The position numbers were made by a program, and so were the translations under genes. A DNA stretch of 34,631 bases. Source: an uncultured Bacilli bacterium. GTDB lineage: Bacteria; Bacillota_I; Bacilli_A; RF39; UBA660. Of this stretch, positions 7,290 to 30,323 are shown piece by piece (the stretch's first letter is position 1; every line of letters starts with the position of its first letter). The notes below the pieces were generated by a model. The model was not told where the DNA came from and made no database searches. It worked only from the letters and a program-made list of their open reading frames with translations. The stretch lies in NCBI GenBank assembly GCA_934096025.1, contig CAKOLP010000001.1, positions 1-34,631 on the forward strand. Direction: 5' to 3'.

Positions 7290-8075
7290 ATGACTGTAAA
7301 TAAAACATTTTTATCTGAGATGAATTTCTTATCAATAGGAACTGATATTATTATACCCGAGTTATTTCAAAATATTAAAAATAATCCTGAGAATCCTTTA
7401 AAACCTACGGGTGGGTTTTGGGCAACAGAATATCACGAATCATACAAGTATTTTAGTCCATGGTTGGATTTTGCTTGTGTTCGTAAAGATATATTATATC
7501 GTTATTATCAATTATATGGTTTTAAACCAAAAGGCGTCTATTTTAGTATAAATCAATGTAGTAATATATTTATTTTGGATTCTTTTGAAAGTTATATGTA
7601 CTTACTAGAGCACTTTGGAAACAATGGGGTTATTGATTTTGAAGCAATGGCTCAAGTATATGATGGTGTTTATGTTAATGTCTTTGCTTTAAATAATTCT
7701 GATAATGATGTATTAAGACAAATGGGAAAAACTTGGGGAGTTAGTTCTCTGGTTGTCTTCAATTTAACAGTAATCAATTGTTTTCAGTCTGTTAATATTG
7801 ATATTGAAGAAAAAGATATTTTTGATTTTACGCTAGAACCACTTTTTTATATAATTAATGTTGAAAAAGGAGTACATAAAGTTAGCCATTCATCTAAACG
7901 GAGGGAAGAACTTATTGAAATAATGAGAGAATTTGTTCATACAAATGGATTAGCCCCAATACCTGAGAATATGAAGCTTCTTTTGGATATTTACGGTGGT
8001 GAAATACTTCACTTGTTTGGAAGTGACAATCCCAAACTTAAAAAAACTTTAACAATTAACAAAGTTTTACATTAG
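7290..8075 (+). CDS. Hypothetical protein (261 aa)
   Basis: This is a long ORF with the RBS AAGGGGGA upstream. I recognised no motif. Confidence 0.6.
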   Translation: MTVNKTFLSEMNFLSIGTDIIIPELFQNIKNNPENPLKPTGGFWATEYHESYKYFSPWLDFACVRKDILYRYYQLYGFKPKGVYFSINQCSNIFILDSFESYMYLLEHFGNNGVIDFEAMAQVYDGVYVNVFALNNSDNDVLRQMGKTWGVSSLVVFNLTVINCFQSVNIDIEEKDIFDFTLEPLFYIINVEKGVHKVSHSSKRREELIEIMREFVHTNGLAPIPENMKLLLDIYGGEILHLFGSDNPKLKKTLTINKVLH

Positions 8076-9013: not shown

Positions 9014-9042
9014 CCTAAAAAAAAGACACGGAAATGTCTTTT
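9014..9042 (-). terminator. Rho-independent terminator closing the T4SS operon
   Basis: The minus strand reads TAA-AAGACA-TTTCCG-TGTCTT-TTTTTTAGG. That is a 7-8 bp stem, a 6-nt loop and a T-run, placed immediately at the T4CP stop codon. Confidence 0.7.
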
Positions 9043-11215
9043 ACTCATCAAAGAAGTCATCGAAGAATTCGTCATCAGATACAATATTATTGTCAATAAC
9101 TTTACTATCAGAATCAACTTTTATTTTGGGTATATCCTCAAGTTTAGGTTCTTCAGGCGTTAATATAATCTTAGGTTTATCTGCTTTTTCTTCTACTGGC
9201 TCTTTAATTTCTTTATTTAGTTTTTCTTTTTCTAATGCTTCTTGACGGTCAAGTTCTTTGAACTTTTCATCTAAGCTTTTTATTACACTATCTAAGTCCA
9301 AGTCACTCATTTTGCTATTAAATGGGCTATCTGGCATTGAGTTTTTTGGAAAGCTCGAATCTGGAAAATTAAGATTGTTATTCATTCCTGATGTTATTGG
9401 TGCTCCGAAAGAGCTTGGCATAGGGCCGAATGGGTTGAATCCTCCGGATGGGTTAAATGGATTCTTTGCACCTTGATCTTTTAATTGTTCACTCATTTTC
9501 TTGTTTCTTTCTTCAGTAACAAACTTTTTCAAATCAAATATTTCAACAGATCTTCTTTCACGAGTTGGATAATCTTCAGCTTTTCTTTCTATTCCCCAGT
9601 CCATTTTAAAGTCTGGTTCTAATTTTGTTCTAAAAGGGTCTGTTCTTAATCTTTTGATAATTGTTTCAAAAAGTTTCATTTTTTGTAAGTCAGTAACTGT
9701 TATAAGTGGCCTTGTAGCACTTTTATCTTTTTCATCAGTAACCCTTACTTCTCCGCACATCTTGCTAATTTCATCTAAAGCTTTCATTTCTGTACTTATT
9801 AAGTACACAATATTACCGCAATTACCTTTAATGATTTCTGCTACATTATCTCCATACACATCATTTAACTGAGCAAAGTTTTGAATGATGAATGTAAATC
9901 TTATATCCCGGCTTCGTGCTGCTGATACCATGGCATCTACATCTTTTAACGGAGGCATATTGGCAAACTCATCAAGAATAAAATTAGTTCTTATTGGAAG
10001 TTTTCCGCCATTTTCTTGAGCAATATCAATTAATGTTTCATAACATTGTTTTATAAATATTGTCATTAATGGGTGGTAAGTTTTCTTTTCATCGTGGATT
10101 ATCATGAAAACAGCGGTTTTACCTTTACCAATGTCTTTCATGTCAAAGTCACTATATGATAACATTTCACTTAAAGCTTCACCAGTTGAGAAGTTTCTTA
10201 TCTTTTGTCTAAATGTTGCAAGTAATCCACCCTTTGTATCACTAGGTGCATTAATTGTACTTGATGCAAACATATAAGCATTAGATTTTTCTCCTTTTAA
10301 GCCAAAATATTCTTTAATATAGTTGCTCATAGCAAACCGTTCTTCACCAACTGTACTCATTACATTTATACTATTTAAATTTACTTCTTCTTCTTTTCCA
10401 TCTTGAAATAAACCTAGTGCTAAACCTGAAAAGTAGTCTGCTGCTGATTTTTCCCAGAAGTCAGATTCATTTTTGTTTGAGGGATCATACAAAATATTTA
10501 GCGCTACGTCATTTAATAGTTCTATTGATTTATCTGCGTTGCCCTCACGATAATATCTAAATGGAAGTGATAAAGGGTTCCAAGAATTACCCCGAATTGG
10601 TTCCCGAAAGTTTAATACAATTATTTTATATCCTCTTTCTTTTAAGTAAGAAGCACTATATTTATAAATTTCCCCTTTAGGGTCAGTAATTACCATACTT
10701 TCGCCTTTTTTGGCTATTAAGTTTACCATTGGCTTAACGATTGTTTGAGTTTTACCACTACCTGTAGAACCTATAACTAAGTTGTGATATTCACCATTAT
10801 CTACCCACATTTCTTTACCATTATTAATTAGAGGAATTCCTGCTGCTTCAATATTATCAGAAAATGGGTCTACTTTTTCAACATCTGCTTGATCTTTTAT
10901 GTCTTTTTCATTTGCCCATTTAGAATAGCCATCGCTTGATTTCTTTTTAAAGCTTATTCCAAAACCAAATTCTTTTTCTCTTTTGAAAATATAAGAAGAT
11001 ACTGTTGAAAAAATACCTATTAATGCCGCTATAAAAAGTAATAGTGTTGCCCCAATGTACCTAGGTGTAAATGCTTTAAATGGTAAAAGGCCATAAAAAG
11101 TTCCGTCTGTTGTAAGACTTGCAAAATTTAATACTGCAATTGCACATAAATATAACAATAATACACAATATATAACAAATAACATAAAGTCTTTAGGTTC
11201 TACTTTAAATTTCAT
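9041..11215 (-). CDS. Type IV coupling protein (VirD4/TraG family ATPase) with a long low-complexity acidic tail
   Basis: Two N-terminal TM helices are present. The Walker A motif is VIGSTGSGKTQT, followed by ITDPKGE. The Walker B region is FILDEFAN. Confidence 0.9.
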   Translation of the reverse strand: MKFKVEPKDFMLFVIYCVLLLYLCAIAVLNFASLTTDGTFYGLLPFKAFTPRYIGATLLLFIAALIGIFSTVSSYIFKREKEFGFGISFKKKSSDGYSKWANEKDIKDQADVEKVDPFSDNIEAAGIPLINNGKEMWVDNGEYHNLVIGSTGSGKTQTIVKPMVNLIAKKGESMVITDPKGEIYKYSASYLKERGYKIIVLNFREPIRGNSWNPLSLPFRYYREGNADKSIELLNDVALNILYDPSNKNESDFWEKSAADYFSGLALGLFQDGKEEEVNLNSINVMSTVGEERFAMSNYIKEYFGLKGEKSNAYMFASSTINAPSDTKGGLLATFRQKIRNFSTGEALSEMLSYSDFDMKDIGKGKTAVFMIIHDEKKTYHPLMTIFIKQCYETLIDIAQENGGKLPIRTNFILDEFANMPPLKDVDAMVSAARSRDIRFTFIIQNFAQLNDVYGDNVAEIIKGNCGNIVYLISTEMKALDEISKMCGEVRVTDEKDKSATRPLITVTDLQKMKLFETIIKRLRTDPFRTKLEPDFKMDWGIERKAEDYPTRERRSVEIFDLKKFVTEERNKKMSEQLKDQGAKNPFNPSGGFNPFGPMPSSFGAPITSGMNNNLNFPDSSFPKNSMPDSPFNSKMSDLDLDSVIKSLDEKFKELDRQEALEKEKLNKEIKEPVEEKADKPKIILTPEEPKLEDIPKIKVDSDSKVIDNNIVSDDEFFDDFFDE

Positions 11216-11258
11216 TTCAATTCCTCATTTCTTAAACTATATTATACAATAAAATTAT

Positions 11259-12020
11259 TTAATCTTCTACAACTACTTCATATTTTTGATTATTGGATTG
11301 ATACATTACAAAACTTGGTTTATGAACATTGGAAAAGTAAGCTTTTTTAAATATAAGATTAGGTGTTTTTTGATCATTTAGCTTTATTACTGAATACAAA
11401 TGATAAGTTGGATTTAAAAGAGCATTCTTTGGTTCAATATTATTTTTTTTAATAATTGTTCTTGTTCCATTTATGTTAGTGTATAATAGATTAAAATAAC
11501 TGTTTGTCTGTTCTTCAATAAAATTATTGGCACTAATTAAATAATCCTTTATACCGTCATTATTTAAATCAACACTATATTTTGAGCAAGTAATATTGCT
11601 TAGGTCACTATAACTTTTAGATGTTAATTCATTTATAAAGTTTACATCACTTTGTAAGCATTCTTCATTTGTTATTCTTTCTATGTTATTTACAAGATTT
11701 TGTGTTGTAGCTAAAATATTATCGTCATAATTTAAGTATTTACTTTCATTTGTTAAAAAGTTCCAAGAATTTACGTATTCAGCTTTATAAATTCCTTGGT
11801 AACCTTCGTTTATATAAACAAGCATTTTGGTCGAACTATCAAAGCTACTTGGACTTTCGCTTTGCCAAGTATTATTCTCATATTTCCATAAAGTTTGCTC
11901 ACCTAAAATTAGGTATTTGGCTTCTTCAACAGCTTTATTTTGAGTTTGAGAGTAAAATAATACTATTATTATTAATATTGCTAAAATACAAATTATTATT
12001 ATTGGAACTTTTTTATTCAT
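11259..12020 (-). CDS. N-terminally anchored extracytoplasmic protein of unknown function (T4SS operon member)
   Basis: It has a single N-terminal TM helix (VPIIIICILAILIIIVLF). A DLNNDGIKDY Ca-binding-like motif is present. It sits between the hydrolase and the T4CP. Confidence 0.6.
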   Translation of the reverse strand: MNKKVPIIIICILAILIIIVLFYSQTQNKAVEEAKYLILGEQTLWKYENNTWQSESPSSFDSSTKMLVYINEGYQGIYKAEYVNSWNFLTNESKYLNYDDNILATTQNLVNNIERITNEECLQSDVNFINELTSKSYSDLSNITCSKYSVDLNNDGIKDYLISANNFIEEQTNSYFNLLYTNINGTRTIIKKNNIEPKNALLNPTYHLYSVIKLNDQKTPNLIFKKAYFSNVHKPSFVMYQSNNQKYEVVVED

Positions 12021-12032
12021 ACTTTTCCCTTT

Positions 12033-14555
12033 CTATTTAAACTTATAAGCTACAATTCTTGTTATATCCGTTAAATTATATGTATTAATTTTTCCTCCGG
12101 ATGGGTCTTTCACTACAACTTTATCACCAGATATTTCTTGGAATAAGACCCAGTGTTCTTGGATACTCTTGTTTTGTATTCTTAATAATGTAATATATTC
12201 TGCCGGACTATAATTATTGATTTTGTTAATTTTTTCTGATACTGAATATGCTCCCATTTCTATGGAAATAGCATCTGCTAGATTTGGCGCTATTTGTTTT
12301 ATAGCTGAGCAACCCCAAATAAGCCTACCATTCCCAGTAAAGCAATTTCCAGAATTCAAAGCTTTAACAAATGTCCCTGGATTTAATTCACTTACTGTCA
12401 CTTGAGTTCCTGAGCATTTTATTCCCATTGTAATCGCCGTAATTGTACAACCAGAACCGCTAACAGTATCATTACTAGATCCTAATTTATAACTTCCCCA
12501 CCTATCGTCACTTTGATTAAATAAAACACAATTTCCAGAGTCATATACTGTGCCTTTATAATTACTATCTATTCCATTTCCTCCGATACATTCATCAGAA
12601 GTAATATTAAATATTGTTTGTCTTTTTGGAATCATGTTTATATTAACTTGATACATAGAATATGCTTTTTGGTCTTCATCTGTTGTTGGCGCGCAATTAG
12701 CATCACTACATCTATTAGATTCACTACAGAAACCAGCAACTTGTGCAGATCTTGCAGTAGATAAGTATTGTTTCATATAAGGATAGTAATAACAGCCACC
12801 TTTTCCAGAGCTTCCTGGATTTGCCCATACTGAACCGATGTACGCGTACTTATTCATCATATCTGAAAGAGTGTCATATTTAGAAACTGTTTTTATAAAT
12901 CCTAAAACTCCCTCATTAAACGAACTATAGCGAATACAATCTTTACCTCCACCATTATTAGTACAGCCTATTCCATAATAATTATAATAATCACCCGGAC
13001 TATATCCCTCTACATCAGCTCTAGTTACTAAAACTTCCGGATTAATATTGTTTTTTACACAAATATCGTATATGTCTTCTGCGTGATTTATAAATTCTTT
13101 AGCATAACTTCCACTTTTTCCAGAATAATAGCTGTTTATCTTAGCTACAAAATCACTTTTTGACAATACTGTGCTTTTTAATGAAAATTCTTCACAACTA
13201 CTGCTATTGGTTATCGCAATATATTCACAATGACTAGCTAAGTCATATATTTGATATGTTGTTTCTTCATCATCTAACTGAATCGAATTTAAAATGCTTT
13301 TGTAATCTGAGCTTTCTTCACTATTTAGGGTTTCAATTAAATCTCTAGTTACATTGATAGTGTCTGATGACGGTAACTTAGATATCATATCATTATATGC
13401 TGAGGGTAAATATAAATAGTTTTCAATTTCATAATATACAGAATCAAACTCTGATTGCACTTCTGTTGGAATATCTGATTCATAGCTAACGCTGCACCCA
13501 TCAATAGATATATTTTTATTTTGACTATCGTAATTTCCCATTCCTAGGGCATTTGTTTTAACTAAAATCATTACCGCTTTTAATAATTCTGTATTATAAT
13601 CGGTTTCTTTAAGTAATGCATATGTACTTCCATATACGTAATCTTTAATTCCCATGCTAATAGATTCTTCTTCGCTTTCCTCACTACTACATGTTTTTAA
13701 ATTTACTGTCGTTAAATTATAGTTACATGCTTCGCTAAAATATCCGCCGTTATCATTATAATCGAAACCTGCTATAATAAGTATTACAATAAATATAATT
13801 ATTGCTATTCCTATAATAGCTATTATACCTGGATTAGTTAAAATAAACGCAACTATTTTTTTCCCTACACTTAAGGCAACTTTTTTTACTTTATCAGCTG
13901 CTTTTTTTTGGACTGCTTTTACTTTGGCAGCAGCTTTTTGCTCTACATTTTTGACAGCTGTTTTTGCTTTACTTTTTGCAGCATCTTTTAATGCTTCTGT
14001 TGGGTGCGTTGCATTATAAGCTTTTGCCTTTACATCATCAATTTTATTGGTTAGGGCATTTTTCTTAGCATTTGCATATTTTAGGTTATCCATTACTTGG
14101 TCCATTTTACTTTTTCTAACAGTGTTAGAACCGTCGGCTTTTACCGGAGCGTTGGCATCTTTTTTTAATTTGTGAGTTTTGCGCCTTTCATTATCTAAGT
14201 CGAAGACTTTTTGATCAAGATCTTTTTGCCTATTTTTATAGTGATTTTTATCATAAACTCCGTCACTATTTTTAGCATTATTATATTCTCTTTGCCCAAA
14301 TTTTTCTCTTTGTGCCGGAGTATTTGGTGTATCACTTAAATACTCTATATTATCTGTATCATTTACATCATTTAATTTATCATCAATTTGTAATTTTTCA
14401 TCTAAAATTGAATCTAATCTACCTAAATCCTCATCTAAATTAAAGTCATCTAAACCAACTTGAGAAGCAATTGTCCTCAAGTTGTCGGGGGAAGAATCAC
14501 CACTACCAGTGTCTAACCCTAATCGTTTAGCTTTTTCTATAATACTATTTTGCAT
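12033..14555 (-). CDS. T4SS-associated multidomain peptidoglycan hydrolase (VirB1 analogue, CwlT/PrgK/TcpG-like)
   Basis: The N-terminal region is charged (Lys/Ala-rich) and followed by one TM helix (IIAIIGIAIIIFIVILIIAGF). A tentative SpoIID-like segment reads KDYVYGSTYALL...ELLKAVMILVKTNAL. A glucosaminidase/muramidase-like segment reads INPEVLVTRADVEGY...YYGIG. The C-terminus is a C39-like/CHAP-type Cys peptidase (SGSGCTITAITMG...EHWVLF...VKDPSGG). Confidence 0.8.
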   Translation of the reverse strand: MQNSIIEKAKRLGLDTGSGDSSPDNLRTIASQVGLDDFNLDEDLGRLDSILDEKLQIDDKLNDVNDTDNIEYLSDTPNTPAQREKFGQREYNNAKNSDGVYDKNHYKNRQKDLDQKVFDLDNERRKTHKLKKDANAPVKADGSNTVRKSKMDQVMDNLKYANAKKNALTNKIDDVKAKAYNATHPTEALKDAAKSKAKTAVKNVEQKAAAKVKAVQKKAADKVKKVALSVGKKIVAFILTNPGIIAIIGIAIIIFIVILIIAGFDYNDNGGYFSEACNYNLTTVNLKTCSSEESEEESISMGIKDYVYGSTYALLKETDYNTELLKAVMILVKTNALGMGNYDSQNKNISIDGCSVSYESDIPTEVQSEFDSVYYEIENYLYLPSAYNDMISKLPSSDTINVTRDLIETLNSEESSDYKSILNSIQLDDEETTYQIYDLASHCEYIAITNSSSCEEFSLKSTVLSKSDFVAKINSYYSGKSGSYAKEFINHAEDIYDICVKNNINPEVLVTRADVEGYSPGDYYNYYGIGCTNNGGGKDCIRYSSFNEGVLGFIKTVSKYDTLSDMMNKYAYIGSVWANPGSSGKGGCYYYPYMKQYLSTARSAQVAGFCSESNRCSDANCAPTTDEDQKAYSMYQVNINMIPKRQTIFNITSDECIGGNGIDSNYKGTVYDSGNCVLFNQSDDRWGSYKLGSSNDTVSGSGCTITAITMGIKCSGTQVTVSELNPGTFVKALNSGNCFTGNGRLIWGCSAIKQIAPNLADAISIEMGAYSVSEKINKINNYSPAEYITLLRIQNKSIQEHWVLFQEISGDKVVVKDPSGGKINTYNLTDITRIVAYKFK

Positions 14556-14578
14556 AATACCTCCTTAAGGAGATGTTA

Positions 14579-16366
14579 TTAATAACCTCCACCTGATCCA
14601 AAAGAATCTAATTCTTCTTGTGTTAAAACTACTTGAATTTTCATTCTTTTGTTTCCACAAATAAATAAACCAAACCCTTGTTCATAATATTTAATTGATT
14701 CCATTTCTGATTCATTTAAATCAATTAATTTTGCTAAATCATCTACAGCTTGCTTTCTTAAATTCATTACTAAATAATAAGAGGCATTATCAAATATTGC
14801 TTTACCATGAGTAATAATATTTGGAGCAGCAAAGTCCGTAGGTTGTTGGGTAATTATAATTGTACCCGTATTATATTTTCTGCTTCTTCTTTGTATTTGA
14901 GCTAAAAATTCTGCCCCTAGTTCATTGTGTCCTGATAATAGAACATGAGCTTCATCTACCATCATAACGGTATTAAGGGATTTATCTAGGCATAAGCCCC
15001 AAGCATATTTTAATATATTAAAGAATAAAGCATTTTTAATATTTTCATCACTATTCATTAATTCTTTGATATTAAAGACGATAAAATCACTTTCAATAGA
15101 TAAAGTAGTCTTACCTGTAAAATAATATCTTAATTCTTTTACCAATGGTCTTACTTTTAATTCTAGTCTTTCTAAGACATCTCTTTCATGAGTTGCATCT
15201 GTCATACTAGTTAAATGTCCCCGTATTGTTGCATAAACATCATCAAAAGTAGGATAATCTGCACTAGTAAGCTTTGTAAAATCAGTATTGTAATCAATAC
15301 GATATCTTTTATAAGTTTCTTGTAAGACATCACTAAACATTGTTAAAACATCATCTTCGATACTCGGAGAATAATACTTCATAAAAGCTTTTACTTGTTG
15401 TAAAGTTCTTGTTAAAACTGTATACCCTAACCCTTGAGCTATTTCTTCTTCGTCCGTATCTATTACTATTTCTAGGGGATTAATCATCCCAAAAGTTCCA
15501 CCTTTACCTAAATCAAGGAAGTCACCGCCAAGAGAATGACACATTTCTCCTAGTTCACCCTCTGGATCTACACAAACTACTTTAAAGCCATTACGTATAT
15601 GTGTTCTAAGTAGTACTTTTGCAGCAGTTGACTTACCACTACCAGATGTACCAAGTAAAATTATATTGGCATTATTTCTATTATTTTCTTTTCTTATTTG
15701 GAATAAAAATTGATTAAATAATATTACTCCACCAGACCAGTCAACTCCAAGAAGTGTTGCATTTCCTGGGTCCTTTATACTATCAAATATAAATGGATAC
15801 ATGGCAGCTACAGTAACTGAGGGAATCGGTGTTCCAATACGATTTTCGATATCTTGTGGTGGGAAAATTGGCAATATTGATTTTAAAGCTTTTTCTTGTT
15901 CAAACATTAATGCAACAGCACGCATACCTAAAGCATCAAGATAACTTCGAACTTGGATTTTTCTTAGTTCTAATTCTTCTTTATTATCTGCAGTAATCAT
16001 TAAGTGCATTTGAAAGTCAAAAATTCTTGCTTGTGTTGCTGCTAGCATTTGAATGAATTGCTCTAAAGATTCATAGTCTTGTCTAATACGTTCTTGCATA
16101 GTATTATCTTTTTCACTTTGATATCTTACTTTTAAATCTGCTATTTCCTTATTTAACATTTTTTGTAAAACACTAAAAGGAATTGTCATATGTTTAATAG
16201 CTATTTTTACCCCTTGTAAATTCGTAATATCTGATAAAAATCCTGGCACAATATTTCTTGGAAAAGCTATTACAGTAAGAATTGTAGAATATTTTCCTCC
16301 AAGTACAAATTCTGTTGGTTTAAACTCCATTCCTTTTGGAGCTACTTCACTTTTAAGTTTACTCAT
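14579..16366 (-). CDS. VirB4-family T4SS ATPase, C-terminal (ATPase) portion
   Basis: The Walker A motif is LLGTSGSGKST and the Walker B motif is MMVDEAHVLL. The segment IIITQQPTDF is also present. At 595 aa it is about 200 aa shorter than typical Gram-positive VirB4 proteins. Confidence 0.9.
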   Translation of the reverse strand: MSKLKSEVAPKGMEFKPTEFVLGGKYSTILTVIAFPRNIVPGFLSDITNLQGVKIAIKHMTIPFSVLQKMLNKEIADLKVRYQSEKDNTMQERIRQDYESLEQFIQMLAATQARIFDFQMHLMITADNKEELELRKIQVRSYLDALGMRAVALMFEQEKALKSILPIFPPQDIENRIGTPIPSVTVAAMYPFIFDSIKDPGNATLLGVDWSGGVILFNQFLFQIRKENNRNNANIILLGTSGSGKSTAAKVLLRTHIRNGFKVVCVDPEGELGEMCHSLGGDFLDLGKGGTFGMINPLEIVIDTDEEEIAQGLGYTVLTRTLQQVKAFMKYYSPSIEDDVLTMFSDVLQETYKRYRIDYNTDFTKLTSADYPTFDDVYATIRGHLTSMTDATHERDVLERLELKVRPLVKELRYYFTGKTTLSIESDFIVFNIKELMNSDENIKNALFFNILKYAWGLCLDKSLNTVMMVDEAHVLLSGHNELGAEFLAQIQRRSRKYNTGTIIITQQPTDFAAPNIITHGKAIFDNASYYLVMNLRKQAVDDLAKLIDLNESEMESIKYYEQGFGLFICGNKRMKIQVVLTQEELDSFGSGGGY

Positions 16367-16367
16367 A

Positions 16368-16913
16368 CTACATCACCGCCCCAAATTTAGTTGTTTCTCC
16401 CCCATTTAAGAAGTTATCTAATATTACTCTTAAGTCATTGTTTGATGTTTGGGTAGATTGCAAGCCAGCACTAGCTAAGCCACTAATTAAATTATGTAGT
16501 TTCTTTTGCACTAGCTCTAATCTTTTTTCTTTAAATAAAATATAATATTCTGTATCAACAACATTATACTCACTACTCATAAATAGGTTAGCTTTATTAA
16601 TATCTTGCATAATTAATTTTTTAGCTATATTTGTCGTAGCGTTATTATACATAAGTTGTAATTGTGATAAATAAACATCTATATCAACAGGTCTATCAGC
16701 TATTAGAAGCCAAAAATCATAGTCAATACTATTATAAAAATTTCTAAGTTGATATATCGTATTGTTTTGAGTTCCTTGATCCATTATAAATATGTTTTTA
16801 GGAGTTACTTTTACTCCGGTTACATACATACCGTCATCTAATTGGATCATACCGTTCATAATTTGTCTTATTGGTAACCAATCTTCCGTATAATTTCTAT
16901 TCATCTCTGTCAT
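16368..16913 (-). CDS. VirB4 N-terminal domain encoded as a separate ORF
   Basis: The sequence DWLPIRQIMNGMIQLDDGMYVTGVKVTPKNIF resembles the N-termini of ConE/Orf16-type VirB4 proteins. Its stop (16368-16370) lies 1 nt from the next ATG (16364-16366), in a different frame. Confidence 0.65.
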   Translation of the reverse strand: MTEMNRNYTEDWLPIRQIMNGMIQLDDGMYVTGVKVTPKNIFIMDQGTQNNTIYQLRNFYNSIDYDFWLLIADRPVDIDVYLSQLQLMYNNATTNIAKKLIMQDINKANLFMSSEYNVVDTEYYILFKEKRLELVQKKLHNLISGLASAGLQSTQTSNNDLRVILDNFLNGGETTKFGAVM

Positions 16914-17211
16914 CTTTACAACACCAACCTTTCCAATAATATCTGCGAGGATTAAATATAAAACTAAATATGTTTATTATAAATTGTAATACATTGTGAT
17001 AGTACATTACCGGCGTTACTAGAAAACCTGTAATTAATGCCGGCAATAGAATAACTATCATTTGTGGTAATGAGGCGTGTTGTATTAATATTAACAAAAG
17101 TACCGTAAGCCCACAGCCAAATCCAAATAGCATTAAATCCGTCGGTGTAAAAAAGCCTAAAATCAATTGGGACTTTTTAGCATTTGCTGGTATCAAATAG
17201 TTATTATTCAT
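16897..17211 (-). CDS. PrgI / VirB3-like small membrane protein
   Basis: The protein is 104 aa and begins IPANAKKSQLILGFFTPTDLMLFGFG, followed by two TM helices. It lies directly upstream of VirB4 and overlaps it by 17 nt. Confidence 0.6.
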   Translation of the reverse strand: MNNNYLIPANAKKSQLILGFFTPTDLMLFGFGCGLTVLLLILIQHASLPQMIVILLPALITGFLVTPVMYYHNVLQFIINIFSFIFNPRRYYWKGWCCKDDRDE

Positions 17212-17231
17212 TCCTTTTCATTCCTTTCATA

Positions 17232-19712
17232 TTATTTGCTATCGCCACCACTTTTATTGGCACGTGCAAGTTTTTCAAATTCGGCATCTATATCAATATT
17301 TCTATCTTTCATCAATGTAATTAAATTATCAAAGGCATCAAAAGCATCTTGACCTGATAATTCTGATAATGGCGTAGTTCCAGGCGGCATATATTTTTCA
17401 TATAATGCAGAAATAACTGCCACATTTTCTTGCAATAAGTTGTTAACATTGGTTTTAGAAGAAGCAATTTTACTCCACCGTTGATTATCTCCTCCGCCAA
17501 AACTAAGTTGGGCATTGTTTAACGCTTCATTAGCTAAGTAATCAGCCACTTTATCTTTAGCATCATTATATTGTGCTTGTAACTTGTTCATGTAGTCATT
17601 ATATTGTGCTTGACTATTAATTACTATATCATTTCCATTAAAGTCTTTTACAGTTTTACCATTGACAGCGGCAAATGAAATAGTATTTAATTCCATTTCC
17701 ATATCGCCTAAAGATCTTACACATGGACTACCAGCTGAGGCAACAATACTTGCATTGTGAGCAACTGAGTTTAACATTTCATCTCTATGGGTTGCTTGGT
17801 AATTCACTTGCTTATTATTAATATCTGCTTGCATTTTATTGAAGCCGTCTTCTTGGAAAGCATAAGTTTTTAGATATTTTTTCAAATTTCTTTCAGATGT
17901 TGATAATTGATTTTTTAAATTTGCTAAATAATTTGAATAATCTAACTCACTATTAATAGCTATTTCATTACCGTTGAAGTCTCTAACTTTTTTACCAATG
18001 ATATCTTGAACATTACTTTTTCTCATTATATCTAAATGTTCATGCATAGCATCTAAAGACATATTAGGTCCCCCAGATGCTAAAACTAGTGCAGCGTTTT
18101 GACTAACTGCTTCCCGAGTTATTAAATCATCAACAACATTTCCTATCTTATCGTCTTCATTCAAGAATTTTTTATATGAATCTCTTTCGCTTTGCAAAGC
18201 ACTGTAGGAAGCATCAATGCCTAGATATGACTTAACAGCATCAGCTCTATCTCCCGCTGCATTCCATACTAAATTACTGGCATTTTGAAGCATTCCCATA
18301 GCTCCTGGAACGTATTTACCTGAAGCTTTATATCTTGCCCAATTTTCAGCTCTATTTCCACGTGCTTCTGTTGCAGCATCAACAGCTCCTCCTGCAGCTT
18401 TACGAACATCTGAAAAGTTTTTAGCTCCCCTTGCTCTATTTCCACCTCTAATAAAACCAGAAGCAGCACCAGCTCCAGCAGATAATACACCGCCCACTAT
18501 AGCTTTGCCTTTATTTCCAAGGCCTTTAGCCTCTTTAACTTTCTTTCCTGCAGCTACAGCATTTCTTGCTAAAGTTCCTGCAGCACCACCTACAGCACTA
18601 GCTGCAAGCAATCCACCACCAGCAGCAAGTTTTTCTCTTAAACCAAGTTTCATACCACCAGTATCAAGACCGAATAAATCGCCAAGAAGTTTAGGTATTT
18701 GTTTTATAAACATAACTACAGCCATAATTAAAATTGCTCGTACAAAAGTCGGTTGTAAAAAACCACTAAGTCCACCACTTTCACTTATTGTAGCTAGTGC
18801 TTCACTATTAACTATTATATTTATCATTTTTATACCAAAAGCTATAGCTCCGATTCTAATAAAGACTTCAACAAACAAGCTTATTATTTGTTTTACCCAT
18901 TTAGAAAATACGTCTTTAAGCTTTCCTCCTGGAACAACACGACAAACCACTGGTATCGGAGCAATTATTTGATAAAAAGCTAATTTTATCGTTCTTAGAG
19001 CCATATCAAAACAGAAGTTAAGAAGTACATATAATACAAATCCTCCAGCTATTGTTGATATTGGCCAGTAGTAATTAAGTTTACTATTATCATCATTCAA
19101 TTCTTTAGCTAGTTTTCCGTATTGCCCAAATGATGCACCATTATAAACTCTTGTATCAATACTTTTTAATGTATCATCGCCCGATCCTATACTTTCTGTA
19201 CACTCATCAGAAGCATCTAAAATATTTTCCGAACAACCGTCTTCTCCTAATTTAGGACTAAAAAATGCTCTAAATGTATAAAAAGCTATATCATTACCGC
19301 CTTTATTAATCAAGTCTTCTTCATTGCCATTTGTAGTATTGTCACTTAAAATAATCTTTGTTATCGTGCCTTGATTTAATAAAGCACTTTGAACATTAAA
19401 TACAAATCCAAAAATTGTTGGCAATACTGCCAAAATTACTAAAGAAACTACTACATTTTGGATAAGCTTAGGAAACGAACTTTCTCCCTTAGCAAAATTA
19501 TCCGGATTTATAACAGCCTTTAAAAGTGAATATGCTAGCACAAATAGCATTACTAAACCAATAACTATATATACTCTATTAGCTAAGTCTGTATATTCAT
19601 CCATTCCAAATAAATTGATTTTTGTTAAAGCAATAAAAATCTCATAAATATAACGAACAAAATTATATATTACACCATCTAACCACAACAAAAATTTATA
19701 AATAATATCCAT
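17232..19712 (-). CDS. VirB6-like polytopic T4SS channel protein with Gly/Ala-rich linker and duplicated C-terminal module
   Basis: Multiple TM helices occupy the first ~370 aa. A GGGLLAASAVGGAAG... stretch follows. Two ~85-aa repeats then occur (...KKVRDFNGNEIAINSELDYSNYL... and ...KTVKDFNGNDIVINSQAQYNDYM...). Confidence 0.7.
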   Translation of the reverse strand: MDIIYKFLLWLDGVIYNFVRYIYEIFIALTKINLFGMDEYTDLANRVYIVIGLVMLFVLAYSLLKAVINPDNFAKGESSFPKLIQNVVVSLVILAVLPTIFGFVFNVQSALLNQGTITKIILSDNTTNGNEEDLINKGGNDIAFYTFRAFFSPKLGEDGCSENILDASDECTESIGSGDDTLKSIDTRVYNGASFGQYGKLAKELNDDNSKLNYYWPISTIAGGFVLYVLLNFCFDMALRTIKLAFYQIIAPIPVVCRVVPGGKLKDVFSKWVKQIISLFVEVFIRIGAIAFGIKMINIIVNSEALATISESGGLSGFLQPTFVRAILIMAVVMFIKQIPKLLGDLFGLDTGGMKLGLREKLAAGGGLLAASAVGGAAGTLARNAVAAGKKVKEAKGLGNKGKAIVGGVLSAGAGAASGFIRGGNRARGAKNFSDVRKAAGGAVDAATEARGNRAENWARYKASGKYVPGAMGMLQNASNLVWNAAGDRADAVKSYLGIDASYSALQSERDSYKKFLNEDDKIGNVVDDLITREAVSQNAALVLASGGPNMSLDAMHEHLDIMRKSNVQDIIGKKVRDFNGNEIAINSELDYSNYLANLKNQLSTSERNLKKYLKTYAFQEDGFNKMQADINNKQVNYQATHRDEMLNSVAHNASIVASAGSPCVRSLGDMEMELNTISFAAVNGKTVKDFNGNDIVINSQAQYNDYMNKLQAQYNDAKDKVADYLANEALNNAQLSFGGGDNQRWSKIASSKTNVNNLLQENVAVISALYEKYMPPGTTPLSELSGQDAFDAFDNLITLMKDRNIDIDAEFEKLARANKSGGDSK

Positions 19713-19724
19713 AATTTAATCCCC

Positions 19725-20165
19725 CTAACTTATGTTGCAGGTACCATAGATACCAAACAATTCCATTAGCAATTCGACTATAATTGGCAAAAAGAAAATT
19801 AATACACAATAAATAAATCTTTTTATAGCTTTACTTCCTGCCTTTTTAATAGCATCCTTATCATTAGCTACTATAGCTTTCATAAAGTCTAATGTGACAA
19901 ATACAAAAAGAGCTATAATAGCGGCATATTTCATAATATCCAAAATTCGTTGAAGCCAATATGCCGGAGTACTATCTATGTCTGGGTCACCTAAATAGCT
20001 TTCACAATTATTTTCCATTGGCATAATACCATAGTTTTTTACAGTCATTATTTCTATTAATTCATCATTTCTATAAGATACCGCATTAACATCCTTTATA
20101 TTAAACGAAAAAAAGAATAGAAAAGTGAAACACAAAAACAAGAATTTATTAAAATTTTTATTCAC
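19725..20165 (-). CDS. VirB2/TrbC-like (pilin-like) small membrane protein, first gene of the T4SS operon
   Basis: A signal peptide (FLFLCFTFLFFFSFNIKDVNA) is followed by two C-terminal TM helices flanking the KAIVANDKDAIKKAGSKAIKRF loop. I prefer the GTG at 20165 (GGAG 8 nt upstream) over the track start at 20174. Confidence 0.5.
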   Translation of the reverse strand: MNKNFNKFLFLCFTFLFFFSFNIKDVNAVSYRNDELIEIMTVKNYGIMPMENNCESYLGDPDIDSTPAYWLQRILDIMKYAAIIALFVFVTLDFMKAIVANDKDAIKKAGSKAIKRFIYCVLIFFLPIIVELLMELFGIYGTCNIS

Positions 20166-20202
20166 TTTAATCACTCCAATTTCCTAAAAAAATTCTAACT
20201 AG

Positions 20203-20232
20203 ATTTTACCATAAGTATGGTATTTTAGTCAA
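20203..20232 (-). promoter_or_regulatory. Sigma-A-type promoter (extended -10) for the T4SS operon
   Basis: The minus strand reads TTGACT (20232-20227), an 18-nt spacer ending in TGG, then TAAAAT (20208-20203). This lies about 38 nt upstream of the first start codon. Confidence 0.55.
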
Positions 20233-22871: not shown

Positions 22872-23519
22872 CTATTGTGTTATTTTTTGTCCGTCTTTAG
22901 TTATAATTGTATACGAAGAATTGCAAGTATATCCCTCGATACACCCAGTTACAGGCTCATACTCTAAAATATCTTCAACTTTATAATTTTTAAAATCATT
23001 ATCTAAATCAAAATTAATTTCTCCATTATTCCCAAAATAAACACTGTACACTTTTCCGTCTTCGGTTATAGCTAAAATATTAAAGTCTACAGAAGAAGAT
23101 ATGGTGTTAGTTCCTTTAATTCGTTTAATGTTTTTAATTTCTGTATATTTTTCTAGCTTGGGTTCTTCTTTAGAAATTGTTGGTAAATCCATAGTATAAT
23201 CATAAATGTTTTCTGTTATTGGTAAAAACTTACATTTGTAATATAAATAACCGTCTTCCACTAAAAATAGTTGTAATCTTAATTTTTCCGTAGGACTAGA
23301 ATCATATGATTTATCTATGGCATATGCAAACTTATCATTTACACTAATTGTTTCACTTTGTTTATTGTTTGTTATATCCTTGGGTTTATCCTCTACTTTG
23401 TTTGTATCTTCTGGTTTATTTAATACTTTATCATAAAATATATACCCACCTAAGCAAATACTTAAAATTATTAATGCTACACTTAAAATTATTAAACCTA
23501 TACTATTTTTGCTTTCCAT
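22872..23519 (-). CDS. N-terminally anchored protein of unknown function (paralogue A)
   Basis: The first ~37 residues (MESKNSIGLIILSVALIILSICLGGYIFYDKVLNKPEDTN) are nearly identical to those of the neighbouring gene. The rest of the protein is unrelated. Confidence 0.7.
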   Translation of the reverse strand: MESKNSIGLIILSVALIILSICLGGYIFYDKVLNKPEDTNKVEDKPKDITNNKQSETISVNDKFAYAIDKSYDSSPTEKLRLQLFLVEDGYLYYKCKFLPITENIYDYTMDLPTISKEEPKLEKYTEIKNIKRIKGTNTISSSVDFNILAITEDGKVYSVYFGNNGEINFDLDNDFKNYKVEDILEYEPVTGCIEGYTCNSSYTIITKDGQKITQ

Positions 23520-23532
23520 AACTTCCTCCTAC
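23413..23532. repeat. 120-bp near-identical module (RBS + anchor-coding 5' end), copy 1
   Basis: The sequence ggtttatttaatactttatcataaaatatatacccacctaagca...ccataacttcctcctac matches 24083-24202 with only a handful of mismatches. Confidence 0.85.
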
Positions 23533-24189
23533 CTAAATTGTAAATTGTTCATAATATATATGATTATCTTTAACACCTAAAACTAAATTAGCTTTTAGGT
23601 CTTTTGTTTTATTATTTTTATCTTTAATCGTTACTATAGTTTTATATTTATTGTTTTCTTTTTTTACTTCTGAATCTAAACTATAAGTATATTGGTTACT
23701 TCCAAAGCCGTCACCAGTATCATATGCTTTATAATAAACGTTATTTTCATAGTTTATTTTTTCTAAGCTTACATTAAAGTAATTTGTAAATTTTGTGTAA
23801 TCTGCTTCGGTCATAACTCGTGTACTATAAAGTGGATTAATATCTATTTCATCATATTTTATATTATACATACATGACATTAAGTAAGGCGCCATTTGTT
23901 CTAATAAATCGTTATTTGATACGTCAAGATAATCAGTACTCAAATAAAAACATTTATCTTCTAATGAGACATTACTAGTGTTTAAAGCAGATATAAAATC
24001 ATTTAATTCATTTTTAATTAAAGATAGGTTGTCATCTTGTCTGTTATTTTCTTGTTTATCTTCAATCCTGTTTGTATCTACAGGTTTATTTAATACTTTA
24101 TCATAAAATATATACCCACCTAAGCATATACTTAAAATTATTAATGCTACACTTAATACTATTAAGACTGTACTATTTTTGTTTTCCAT
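23533..24189 (-). CDS. N-terminally anchored protein of unknown function (paralogue B)
   Basis: The N-terminus is MENKNSTVLIVLSVALIILSICLGGYIFYDKVLNKPVDTN. The C-terminal domain diverges from paralogue A. Confidence 0.7.
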   Translation of the reverse strand: MENKNSTVLIVLSVALIILSICLGGYIFYDKVLNKPVDTNRIEDKQENNRQDDNLSLIKNELNDFISALNTSNVSLEDKCFYLSTDYLDVSNNDLLEQMAPYLMSCMYNIKYDEIDINPLYSTRVMTEADYTKFTNYFNVSLEKINYENNVYYKAYDTGDGFGSNQYTYSLDSEVKKENNKYKTIVTIKDKNNKTKDLKANLVLGVKDNHIYYEQFTI

Positions 24190-26559: not shown

Positions 26560-26820
26560 ATGAACAACATGTGTAAAGCTGAACAAAAAATTAATGCGTA
26601 TAATAAGGCTAACCCCAATGTTACATTTACTTGTTTTGGACCTACGGGACCTACAGGACCTGCTGGAGCTAGTATCCGTGTTGGTGTTACTACTACGACT
26701 AATCCAGGTACTAATGCCAGTGTTGTTAATGTTGGTACTCCGTCGAATGCTGTTTTAGACTTCTATATACCAGCTGGAGCTACGGGCGCCACTGGACCAA
26801 CCGGACCAACTGCTCGATAA
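26560..26820 (+). CDS. 5' segment of a split collagen-like (BclA-type) gene, truncated by the inserted element
   Basis: The ORF has an RBS and ATG, and contains [11 protein letters not shown] ... GATGATGPTGPTAR. It runs into a TAA supplied by the first bases of the inserted element. Confidence 0.8.
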   Translation: MNNMCKAEQKINAYNKANPNVTFTCFGPTGPTGPAGASIRVGVTTTTNPGTNASVVNVGTPSNAVLDFYIPAGATGATGPTGPTAR

Positions 26821-26830
26821 ATTAAATCAT
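26814..26830. repeat. Left terminal inverted repeat / attL core of the intervening element
   Basis: TCGATAAATTAAATCAT has the reverse complement ATGATTTAATTTATCGA. That matches 29710-29726 at 16 of 17 positions. Confidence 0.85.
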
Positions 26831-29726: not shown

Positions 29727-30323
29727 GGAACTGGACCTACTGGTCCTACAGGGGCTCAGGGGGCTCAAGGAACAGCTGGGGTACAAGGGCCTCAAGGATT
29801 AGCAGGGCCTACTGGGCCAACGGGACCTACCGGCCCTACTGGGCCAGCAGGACCAGCAGGACCAGCCGGTGCACAAGGGGAACAAGGAGAAGAAGGAACT
29901 CCAGCTATAACAGCGTATTCATATAAATATGAAAATGGAACAGAAGACTATACCTTAACACAAAATACAGCAACTCAAGTGTTATTAAGTGAAGTTGGTT
30001 CAAATAGTAATGTTAATAATGCAGGAACTAATACTTTTACAATTACTACTCCTGGGGTTTACAAAATAGATTATTTCTTCTTAGGGTCTTCCTCAGTGCA
30101 AACTAATTTAACTTTATCAGTTAGACAAAATAACACTGCTATTACGGGTTCAGAGATTGAAAAAGAAGTACAGGCTAGTACTGAAGAAAGTATCAATGGC
30201 TCTGTAGTTGCTAGTTTATCAAATAATGATACTATTGATTTGGCTATATCTTCCACTACTAATGCTACGGTAACACCTGGCGATGATACAAATGCCTATA
30301 TGGTTTTACTAAGAATTGGATAA
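29727..30323 (+). CDS. 3' segment of the split collagen-like gene (G-X-Y repeats + C-terminal globular domain), no start of its own
   Basis: The frame is open from 29703 and reads [57 protein letters not shown], then a beta-rich domain. It is in the same frame as track ORF 29979-30323. No ATG or RBS precedes the repeats. Confidence 0.8.

Follow-up and report, generated by a model that had tools for sequence, protein, structure and literature searches.

Nearly all Gram-positive type IV secretion systems (T4SSs) are known solely as the means by which mobile elements transfer DNA, and the one lineage-wide non-mobile exception described is that of Patescibacteria (PMC12857230). The patescibacterial T4SS is chromosomal and relaxase-less (Wang et al. 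2023, as summarised in PMC12857230; Quinonero-Coronel et al. 2025, PMC12102498), and in Southlakia it is essential for epibiotic growth, with a coupling protein that is encoded remotely and is non-essential (PMC12102498, PMC12857230). The present analysis dealt with a T4SS operon carried by a 34,631-nt stretch of DNA (contig CAKOLP010000001.1 of assembly GCA_934096025.1, positions 1 to 34,631; hereafter the window) from an uncultured Bacilli bacterium of order RF39, family UBA660. RF39, among the most prevalent uncultured orders of human and animal guts, is found widely in humans, primates, rabbits, chickens, and ruminants and has no cultured member. This uncultured order possesses a strongly reduced genome along with many auxotrophies, and it is devoid of fatty-acid synthesis and of several pathways for amino acids and vitamins (PMC6784871); nucleotide synthesis is reportedly missing as well (PMC13155120). 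No paper connecting RF39 with a T4SS was found in the literature. Judged from its sequence, the operon is very probably a domesticated core T4SS of RF39/UBA660 and not an integrative and conjugative element (ICE), the most likely account being a chromosomal T4SS of the monoderm MPF_FATA-like type (MPF, mating pair formation) that became detached from mobile elements and was kept as a core machine of the cell envelope.

The operon was composed of eight minus-strand open reading frames (ORFs) spanning about 11 kb (9041-20174), namely, in transcription order, genes for a VirB2-like pilin, a VirB6-like protein, a VirB3-like protein, a TrsD-like protein, the VirB4 ATPase, a putative wall hydrolase, a membrane-anchored protein, and a VirD4-type coupling ATPase. 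All eight were present as the initial annotation had placed them, co-directional and tightly packed with gaps of 1-43 nt or overlaps (spacings of 12, 20, -17 [an overlap], 1, 23, 12, and 43 nt). Relatives were collected by scanning one genome per species with VirB4 via exact peptide patterns, and the best 80 of 342 were inspected; the VirB4 proteins of these 80 were 80-97% identical to that of the window. Their records were named uncultured Bacilli, Tenericutes, or Mycoplasma and included Firmicutes bacterium CAG:460 (L009) and Mycoplasma sp. CAG:776 (L048); since family UBA660 of order RF39 includes CAG-460 and CAG-776 as genera (PMC13155120), the locus set was assigned to this family. By tblastn and ORF clustering, the cluster occupied the same site in dozens of species-level genomes, with the conserved order femAB, then pilin-VirB6-VirB3-TrsD-VirB4-hydrolase-anchor-VirD4, then rhodanese-dedA-u261-mscS-adh.

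The cluster and its flanks had diverged together. Across the 33 genomes with all markers, the pairwise distances of motor and flanking proteins were correlated with a Mantel r of 0.954 (reached by 0 of 2000 permutations), and the motor proteins evolved about half as fast as the flanks; the Spearman coefficient between VirB4 identity and DedA identity was 0.85. Median identity to the window was (i) 86.6% (minimum 79.8) for VirB4, 78.9% for the TrsD-like protein, 72.6% for VirD4, and 67% for VirB3; (ii) 68.7% for rhodanese, 69% for DedA, 70.8% for MscS, 78.2% for alcohol dehydrogenase (ADH), and 66.9% for FemA in the flanks; and (iii) down to 31-50% for the pilin, VirB6, hydrolase, and anchored proteins; VirB4 was the most conserved protein of the neighbourhood. 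Relative to the closest species, dS was 0.9-1.6 in cluster and flanks alike, and dN/dS was 0.031 for VirB4 versus 0.06-0.13 for the flanks. The 79 other VirB4 ORFs were all 593-595 aa in length, and VirD4 was intact in the 44 other species-level loci carrying it beside the cluster. These comparisons indicate a cluster that was vertically inherited at a fixed chromosomal position and is equal in age to its flanks; the conserved context, the Mantel correlation, and a dS equal to that of the flanks are not the pattern of horizontal spread. The surface-exposed parts (pilin, VirB6 C-terminal domain, hydrolase modules, and anchored beta protein) evolved fast, while VirB3, the TrsD-like protein, VirB4, and VirD4 were under extreme purifying selection.

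Three explanations had been offered in the initial annotation: a decayed ICE, an element with a distant DNA-processing module, and a domesticated T4SS. The first was contradicted by the uniformly full-length VirB4 ORFs, the 44 intact copies of VirD4, and motor dN/dS values of 0.03-0.06; because of the co-divergence, saturated dS, low dN/dS, and intact ORFs, a decaying remnant and a recent or repeated ICE insertion were both set aside. The distant module is no longer needed as an explanation, because a mobile element and its insertion site would not diverge in step throughout a whole bacterial family. The third was borne out by the conserved synteny, the co-divergence with the flanks, and the strong purifying selection on the ATPases.

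Housekeeping genes adjoined the cluster on both sides, at gaps of 80-98 nt: (i) RelA/SpoT, Tag, a non-specific endonuclease, uracil-DNA glycosylase (UDG), VanY, ADH, MscS, DedA, and rhodanese on one flank and (ii) two FemAB genes, small membrane proteins, collagen-like BclA-type proteins, and LemA, together with UDG, MYG1, RlmH, a metallo-beta-lactamase (MBL)-fold protein, and an M23 peptidase, on the FemAB side. The family searches thus found ordinary chromosomal genes on both sides, as expected from the earlier description of the flanking genes as core. Among the window ORFs of at least 60 aa, no match was obtained to relaxase, Rep, tyrosine or DDE recombinase, or transposase families, so that the reported lack of a relaxase, recombinase, or replication gene near the operon held for everything in the window except one serine recombinase (see below). 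Likewise, a sample of 30 neighbouring proteins taken from the +-10-kb loci in other species included no relaxase, Rep, or tyrosine integrase; it comprised leucyl-tRNA synthetase (LeuRS), LysM proteins, an acyl-CoA ligase, a SleB-like hydrolase, an acyltransferase, a T2SSE ATPase, glycosyltransferases, a few serine recombinases, and some unknowns. The window contained no tRNA genes; the direct repeats flanking the cluster were only chance-level AT-rich ones, none of them resembling attachment (att) sites, and no flanking inverted repeats were more than 75% complementary. Direct repeats enclosing about 9-20 kb together with an integrase, which had been named as the mark of an ordinary ICE, were not found in the window. 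VirB7, VirB9, and VirB10 families had no match in the window either, and with VirD4 present and these three unmatched the operon did not correspond to a ComB-type DNA-uptake T4SS as in Helicobacter.

The sole recombinase of the window was a 672-aa large serine recombinase (26827-28845, minus strand) residing in an insert of about 2.9 kb, which also carried a 140-aa ORF. This insert split a bclA-like collagen gene, whose N-terminal 86 aa were encoded at 26560-26820 and whose frame resumed at about 29715 and ended with a BclA_C domain at 30323; in related species the bclA-like gene was uninterrupted at that position. The recombinase had been attributed to a separate 2.9-kb cassette, and the interruption of the bclA-like gene agreed with this. 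As an integrase of the T4SS cluster, the serine recombinase was ruled out: it lay in the separate bclA insert, which was missing from species keeping the T4SS. The insert resembles the gene-intervening ('skin'-like) elements of the sporulation type.

The comparison was extended to VirB4 relatives outside RF39. When a library was clustered at 50% identity, one full-length representative (68% identical to the query) stood for the RF39 VirB4s, the next two clusters were at 45-46%, and the rest were at 34% or below; the named members of the next clusters were Thomasclavelia ramosa/Coprobacillus, Solobacterium, Erysipelotrichaceae, Culicoidibacterales, and a Mycoplasmatota plasmid, and the best VirB4 homologue among PLSDB plasmids was 29.6% identical. 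VirB4 of T. ramosa (L083) was located in a typical ICE, with a sortase-dependent pilin, a single-stranded DNA-binding protein (SSB), a primase-like protein, and a terminal serine recombinase by housekeeping genes; hidden Markov models of the RF39 pilin and VirB6 families detected no counterparts in this ICE. Early in its history, the RF39 lineage thus seems to have captured and fixed a conjugation module from the Erysipelotrichales/Mollicutes neighbourhood. The comparison suggests that RF39 VirB4 falls outside the monophyletic Patescibacteria clade, its nearest named relatives being from Erysipelotrichales, Mycoplasmatota, and Culicoidibacterales, and an independent domestication is suggested because the nearest VirB4 relatives (at 34% or below) reside on Erysipelotrichales/Mycoplasmatota mobile elements.

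By analogy, the closest functional counterpart of the RF39 operon would be the Patescibacteria T4SS. The two shared (i) a chromosomal monoderm system of MPF_FATA type with no relaxase nearby, found lineage-wide in genome-reduced auxotrophic hosts; (ii) PF18895 VirB2-like pilins, a TrsD-like gene next to virB4, and separate VirB3 and VirB6; and (iii) peptidase/lysozyme genes downstream of virB4, no recognisable VirB8, and pilin paralogue arrays in some species. However, the RF39 host belongs to another phylum and is a walled member of Bacilli with FemAB and VanY; VirD4, usually remote and non-essential in Patescibacteria, was within the RF39 operon and strongly conserved; and the window had a single pilin gene. 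A resemblance to mycoplasma ICEs (ICEA/ICEB: CDS5 VirD4, CDS17 VirB4, and CDS16 VirB6-like) had been noted in the initial annotation, and it was upheld in that the best NCBIfam matches were Mbov_0397 and Mbov_0396, albeit below their cut-offs and without a DDE transposase. Both have a minimal monoderm gene set, and the mycoplasma module has been linked to chromosomal transfer that looks relaxase-independent. In contrast, the best VirB4 piece scored 344.6 against a 590-bit cut-off; mycoplasmas have a VirB3-VirB4 fusion of about 890 aa where the RF39 operon had three ORFs; no DDE (Mutator-like, CDS22) transposase or inverted repeats were matched in RF39, which possessed a putative wall hydrolase; and mycoplasma ICEs are mobile, multi-copy, and randomly inserted, whereas the RF39 locus was fixed and single in each locus examined. 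As to the further statement that mycoplasma ICEs lack a recognisable relaxase, PMC6030558 invokes a relaxase only in a model, which neither confirms nor refutes it.

The Trs systems of pGO1/pSK41 and the Erysipelotrichales ICEs shared with RF39 the order TrsC (VirB3), TrsD, and TrsE (VirB4), with a wall hydrolase (putative in the window) next in line (PMC12102498), but they are carried on plasmids or ICEs with SSB, primase, sortase-pilin adhesins, integrase, and relaxase, and their VirB4 proteins were at most 34% identical. The 'type IV-C' T4SS of Streptococcus suis 89K likewise has a minimal VirB1/B3/B4/B6/D4 set, for which a non-conjugative role in protein secretion has been proposed (PMC12857230); set beside the RF39 locus by description, 89K is a strain-specific pathogenicity island and is not lineage-wide or vertically inherited.

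Four rival explanations were weighed against domestication. It is very improbable that the operon is the conjugation module of an ordinary site-specific ICE with a relaxase and an integrase encoded beyond the window, in which case the shared site would reflect repeated insertion at a preferred target. VirD4 together with a full monoderm MPF gene set, a nearest named relative in a genuine ICE with the same VirB3-TrsD-VirB4 order, best curated matches to mobile-element families, and serine recombinases a few kb away in some loci would all suit such an ICE; but the housekeeping genes at 80-98 nt on both sides, the window recombinase in its separate 2.9-kb bclA insert (missing from species that still have the T4SS), the lack of att repeats and tRNA genes in the window, and the slower evolution of the motor proteins relative to the flanks would not, and repeated horizontal insertion would not give a Mantel r of 0.95 with equally saturated dS. 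Scarcely credible is a decaying, non-functional remnant of an ancient ICE that lost its DNA-processing and integration genes: the four motor genes had dN/dS of 0.03-0.06, below that of the flanking housekeeping genes, ORFs were intact in about 80 species, the translational-coupling junction and Walker motifs were conserved, and a remnant would not stay the most conserved locus of its neighbourhood while dS exceeds 1. Set against this are the unmatched relaxase and integrase, the VirB8-like protein that was not found, and the frameshifted VirB6-like gene of the closest strain; as regards frameshifted or decayed genes in close relatives, which the initial annotation had proposed as signs of a dying remnant, the motor ORFs stayed intact across about 80 species, and only the VirB6-like gene was split in that one strain (L001; see below).

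The other two rivals are versions of domestication that assign a function, and each is rather unlikely as it stands. One is a lineage-wide exchange of chromosomal DNA without a canonical relaxase or oriT, similar to mycoplasma transfer. Its closest curated families are the mycoplasma ICE VirB4 and VirB6-like proteins, RF39 is close to Mollicutes among the Bacilli with reduced genomes, the operon kept a conserved DNA coupling protein of the VirD4 type, and T4SS-dependent chromosomal transfer is documented in mycoplasmas (PMC12857230); yet the operon neither contained nor adjoined a gene for a nicking enzyme, SSB, or primase, in contrast to the T. ramosa ICE, VirD4-type coupling proteins normally require a relaxase pilot, and one subclade lacked an adjacent VirD4. 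The other, drawn by analogy with Saccharibacteria, is a conduit for uptake or feeding, in which the T4SS and a pilin bridge would bring nutrients or DNA to an auxotrophic RF39 cell. The auxotrophies of RF39 (PMC6784871, PMC13155120), the Patescibacteria-like set (chromosomal, no relaxase, PF18895 pilins, TrsD by VirB4, and peptidase/lysozyme downstream; PMC12102498), and the Tad/T2SSE pilus-like cluster beside the pilin genes in several species are in keeping with it. Nevertheless, the strongly conserved VirD4 within the operon points to export, the coupling protein of Saccharibacteria being remote and non-essential (PMC12102498); attachment of RF39 to other cells is a supposition only; and with the nearest named VirB4 relatives in Erysipelotrichales/Mycoplasmatota and not in Patescibacteria, any similarity would be convergent.

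Several points weigh against domestication as a core machine. The search for a relaxase or oriT covered the window and the sampled neighbours, and the rest of the RF39 chromosomes could still hold one. 'Core to all RF39' is an extrapolation, family UBA660 being the best covered. A subclade of about 13 loci (including L046, L048, L053, L055, L056, L061, L062, L066, L067, L069, L075, and L082) had the T4SS in a different housekeeping context and without an adjacent VirD4, and therefore the T4SS was rearranged at least once; this context consisted of pduL-dus-murC upstream (by sequence reading) and bclA-like and glycosyltransferase genes downstream, and the subclade encoded two long (270-450 aa) pilin-family proteins and an extra coiled-coil-looking gene between VirB6 and VirB3. 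A metagenome contig with 99.97% identity to the window (L001) carried a 2-bp deletion that split the VirB6-like gene (AGAGAAAAA to AGAAAAA at L001 position 2583, equal to window position ~18635), giving separate ORFs of 370 and 459 aa; the deletion was exactly at the boundary of the VirB6-like membrane domain and the soluble C-terminal domain, and it may reflect either genuine strain variation or a mistake in assembly. No VirB8-like (NTF2-fold) component was found, the sole candidate being the anchored 253-aa protein (see below), and the hydrolase assignment of the window protein rests on sub-threshold matches.

For the domesticated T4SS, a contact-dependent export of macromolecules to neighbouring cells is favoured over self-transfer of an element and over pure uptake, because VirD4 was retained in the operon. 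The modular hydrolase would open the cell wall locally, the VirB6-like protein, VirB3, and TrsD/VirB4 would form the membrane translocon and its motor, the pilin-like protein would form or cap an extracellular conduit, and VirD4 would feed a cytoplasmic substrate into the channel. The substrate might be protein, or DNA by a non-canonical route, and any specific substrate or direction of transport is put forward only tentatively from sequence data. The fast-evolving surface parts fit an engagement with variable partners.

The initial annotation had VirB4 'split into two ORFs'; two ORFs were indeed present, but they represented a conserved layout and no gene break. The VirB4 ATPase proper (14579-16366, minus strand) corresponded to the C-terminal two thirds of the protein, with an intact Walker A motif GTSGSGKST, and it matched positions 294-891 of the NCBIfam Mbov_0397 'VirB4_plasma' model (9e-103), the NCBIfam CD1110 family (7.7e-50), and Pfam P-loop_TraG and AAA_10. 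The TrsD-like protein (16368-16913, minus strand) corresponded to the N-terminal domain of VirB4 as a gene of its own: it matched VirB4_plasma positions 101-276 (2.8e-13), had PF26593 TraC-like on record, and showed a dN/dS of 0.027. In 81 of 81 loci, ATG came right after a stop codon at their junction, the two being 0-1 nt apart or overlapping by 1 nt (TAATG), and a conserved G-rich stretch preceded the junction. The three-gene layout VirB3, TrsD-like, VirB4 was likewise seen in all 81 loci and also in the Erysipelotrichales ICE, and it is described for pGO1 (TrsC/TrsD/TrsE) and Patescibacteria (PMC12102498). The split is thus an ancestral, translationally coupled arrangement and not a lesion. 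A frameshift or pseudogene at the junction was ruled out by the stop-then-ATG arrangement in all 81 loci, and so was an artefact of genetic code 4: TGA was used as a stop, terminating 7 of the 36 large ORFs of the window in accordance with the standard bacterial code, and the junction stops were TAG or TAA.

The VirB2-like, VirB6-like, PrgI/VirB3-like, VirB4, and VirD4 assignments were sustained by family matches, several of them sub-threshold. The VirD4-type coupling ATPase (9041-11215, minus strand) had N-terminal transmembrane helices, the Walker A motif GSTGSGKT, and a C-terminal tail that was acidic, of low complexity, and terminated by DDEFFDDFFDE; it matched PF02534 (1.3e-53), TraG-D_C (1.6e-24), and the NCBIfam CD1115 family (8e-88; 295 bits, above the 250-bit cut-off), with a cross-species identity of 54-84% and a dN/dS of 0.055, and an identical protein was present on three metagenome contigs. 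A second, divergent VirD4-like gene (37% identity) was seen in L043 (55-4282), a few kb upstream of the core T4SS; it adjoined an HTH/M78 regulator and an AbiEii-like AAA protein and probably belongs to a separate mobile or defence element. The VirB3/TcpE/PrgI-like small membrane protein (16897-17211, minus strand; overlapped by the next gene by 17 nt) matched Pfam TcpE at 1e-4, below threshold, aligned to positions 2-96 of the fused mycoplasma VirB3-VirB4 NCBIfam model, was found in 78 of the 83 clustered sequences (fetched loci plus window), and had a dN/dS of 0.045.

The VirB6-like polytopic membrane protein (17232-19712, minus strand) joined a membrane domain (about aa 1-350) to a C-terminal domain of some 470 aa. 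Its residues 4-351 matched NCBIfam MMCAP2_0566 (1.1e-12), Mbov_0396 (1.9e-8), and pLS20_p028 (3.5e-4); the family scores of the VirB6-like and VirB3-like proteins were all below curated cut-offs, and position and order were conserved. A PDB sequence search with the VirB6-like protein gave nothing useful. The C-terminal domain was fast-evolving, and dN/dS of the whole protein was 0.38. Within this domain (residues ~560-720), following a Gly/Ala-rich linker, there were two repeats of about 100 residues with the pattern ...V(R/K)DFNGN(E/D)I.INS...Y..Y...L..., which matched nothing in Pfam or PDB.

The T4SS_pilin (VirB2-like) gene (19725-20174, minus strand) encoded a signal peptide and two C-terminal hydrophobic helices. 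Translation probably begins at the second GTG (20165), which yields a protein of 146 aa, the length found in public gene calls. The window pilin matched PF18895 at 0.025, and 28 of the 83 family members matched it (best, 8e-6); median cross-species identity was 50% and dN/dS 0.14. Two to three PF18895 pilin paralogues were present in several RF39 species, as against the single gene of the window. Gram-positive MPF classes are described as having no VirB2 homologues (PMC12102498), and for this reason a PF18895 pilin heading a Firmicutes T4SS operon is of note. Directly upstream of the T4SS pilin genes, a Tad/type IV-pilus-like cluster was seen in L047, L049, L052, L060, L070, L079, and L045, with a T2SSE ATPase (Pfam), two membrane proteins, two 75-97-aa and two 160-190-aa pilin-like proteins, and a 320-aa protein; it recalls the joint need for type IV pili and a T4SS in Saccharibacteria.

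The gene following virB4 (12033-14555, minus strand) encoded an 840-aa bitopic protein with a transmembrane helix at about aa 233-263, a putative modular cell-wall hydrolase in the VirB1 role. It appeared to consist of a conserved cytoplasmic N-terminal domain, a SpoIID-like domain, a lysozyme-like middle, and a C39/papain-like C-terminal domain. The full-length protein had no Pfam match at 1e-3 and nothing significant in a PDB sequence search; searched in segments, it gave SpoIID (0.045) and Peptidase_C39_2 (0.007), both sub-threshold. The AlphaFold2 (AF2) model had a pLDDT of 71.9 with well-predicted individual domains, and Foldseek gave weak matches to the PCAT1 C39 domain, AvrPphB (C39/papain-like), SleC, and SpoIID. 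The 47 proteins occupying this slot elsewhere carried Peptidase_M23 (17), SpoIID (14), Phage_lysozyme (13), Phage_lysozyme2 (10), CHAP, C39_2, and NlpC/P60; the homologues were modular, with a common N-terminal half and swapped C-terminal catalytic modules, and dN/dS was 0.44. The peptidoglycan hydrolase originally called here is thus backed by the hydrolase domains of the slot proteins in other species, but for the window protein itself the matches were only sub-threshold; 'multidomain wall hydrolase' seems a reasonable name for it.

The next gene (11259-12020, minus strand) encoded a 253-aa membrane-anchored extracellular protein with a DLNNDG motif, predicted to have an N-terminal helix followed by an all-beta domain (AF2 model, pLDDT 87.6). 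It matched no Pfam family, and Foldseek against PDB returned nothing at E<=1e-3, so that it keeps its description as an anchored protein with no recognised family or fold. It was the fastest-evolving gene of the operon (dN/dS 0.54), and its slot was occupied in different species by three unrelated families (T253, f13, and f16), some of them lipoproteins; Pfam searches with the proteins of this slot from 51 loci gave only lipoprotein-signal and noise matches. As an analogue of VirB8, PrgL, or TcpC, the 253-aa protein was ruled out, its confident model showing neither an NTF2 fold nor a PDB neighbour.

A candidate sigma-70-type promoter with an extended -10 (20203-20232, minus strand; TTGACT-18-TGgTAAAAT) was located in the 98-nt gap between femA and the pilin gene, and a candidate intrinsic terminator (9014-9042, minus strand) lay directly 3' of the virD4 stop codon. 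The promoter candidate scored 10 of 12 with TG ahead of the -10 hexamer, being a consensus match only; the extended -10 first called 'good' is a real match, but such matches were not enriched in the region (65 observed versus 68.9 expected from shuffled sequence). The terminator had an A/U-rich 9-bp stem with only 2 GC pairs followed by U8 (dG -7.9 kcal/mol; z -2.3) and was missed by a stricter scan; the hairpin called 'strong' was thus present with its U8, but it is only plausible and moderate in strength. The window DNA was low in GC (about 28%), and GC content was rejected as an island signal, since the difference between the cluster (30-35%) and the flanks (25-29%) was small and not convincing.

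Some further variation was seen around the operon. A gene of 270-290 aa was inserted between virD4 and rhodanese in L004, L005, L007, L010, L012, and L051, and L082 had a 270-290-aa insert between VirB6 and VirB3; by eye, the inserted gene had the look of an Rpn/YhgA-type PD-(D/E)XK 'recombination-promoting nuclease', as a candidate only. The RF39-type T4SS with its flanks was also met in L016, L021, L023, L050, L066, L078, and L081, although these are bins of Agathobacter, Muribaculaceae, or Methanobrevibacter; the bins are probably contaminated. In the window, two adjacent paralogous membrane-anchored proteins of 215 and 218 aa (22872-24189) had no Pfam family, sharing near-identical N-terminal 40 residues that included the transmembrane helix and having unrelated C-terminal domains; u218-family relatives were found upstream of the pilin gene in other species, beside large unknown proteins of 420-640 aa. 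Between dedA and mscS, a 261-aa protein (u261; 7290-8075, plus strand) without a Pfam family kept its position in most species and was far more variable than its neighbours (identity 28-42%, dN/dS 0.35-0.54).

Taken as a domesticated system, RF39 provides a second and apparently independent case of a lineage-wide non-mobile T4SS, inside Bacilli, and in RF39/UBA660 the T4SS ATPases are more conserved than the neighbouring housekeeping genes. Mining pipelines that call 'conjugative elements' from VirB4 plus VirD4 will mis-annotate this locus in hundreds of metagenome-assembled genomes. It is possible, though conjectural, that the T4SS is a core cell-to-cell conduit on which RF39 may depend and which was domesticated independently, either as a bridge to partners or for relaxase-free chromosomal exchange. 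If so, bona fide Firmicutes would have their first lineage-wide, non-mobile T4SS, the resistance of RF39 to cultivation could be approached from a concrete lead, and a partner bridge would sustain an auxotrophic, possibly epibiotic or parasitic, lifestyle. The conserved contact machine offers a testable handle on the livelihood of RF39, on its dependence on partners, and on its DNA exchange.

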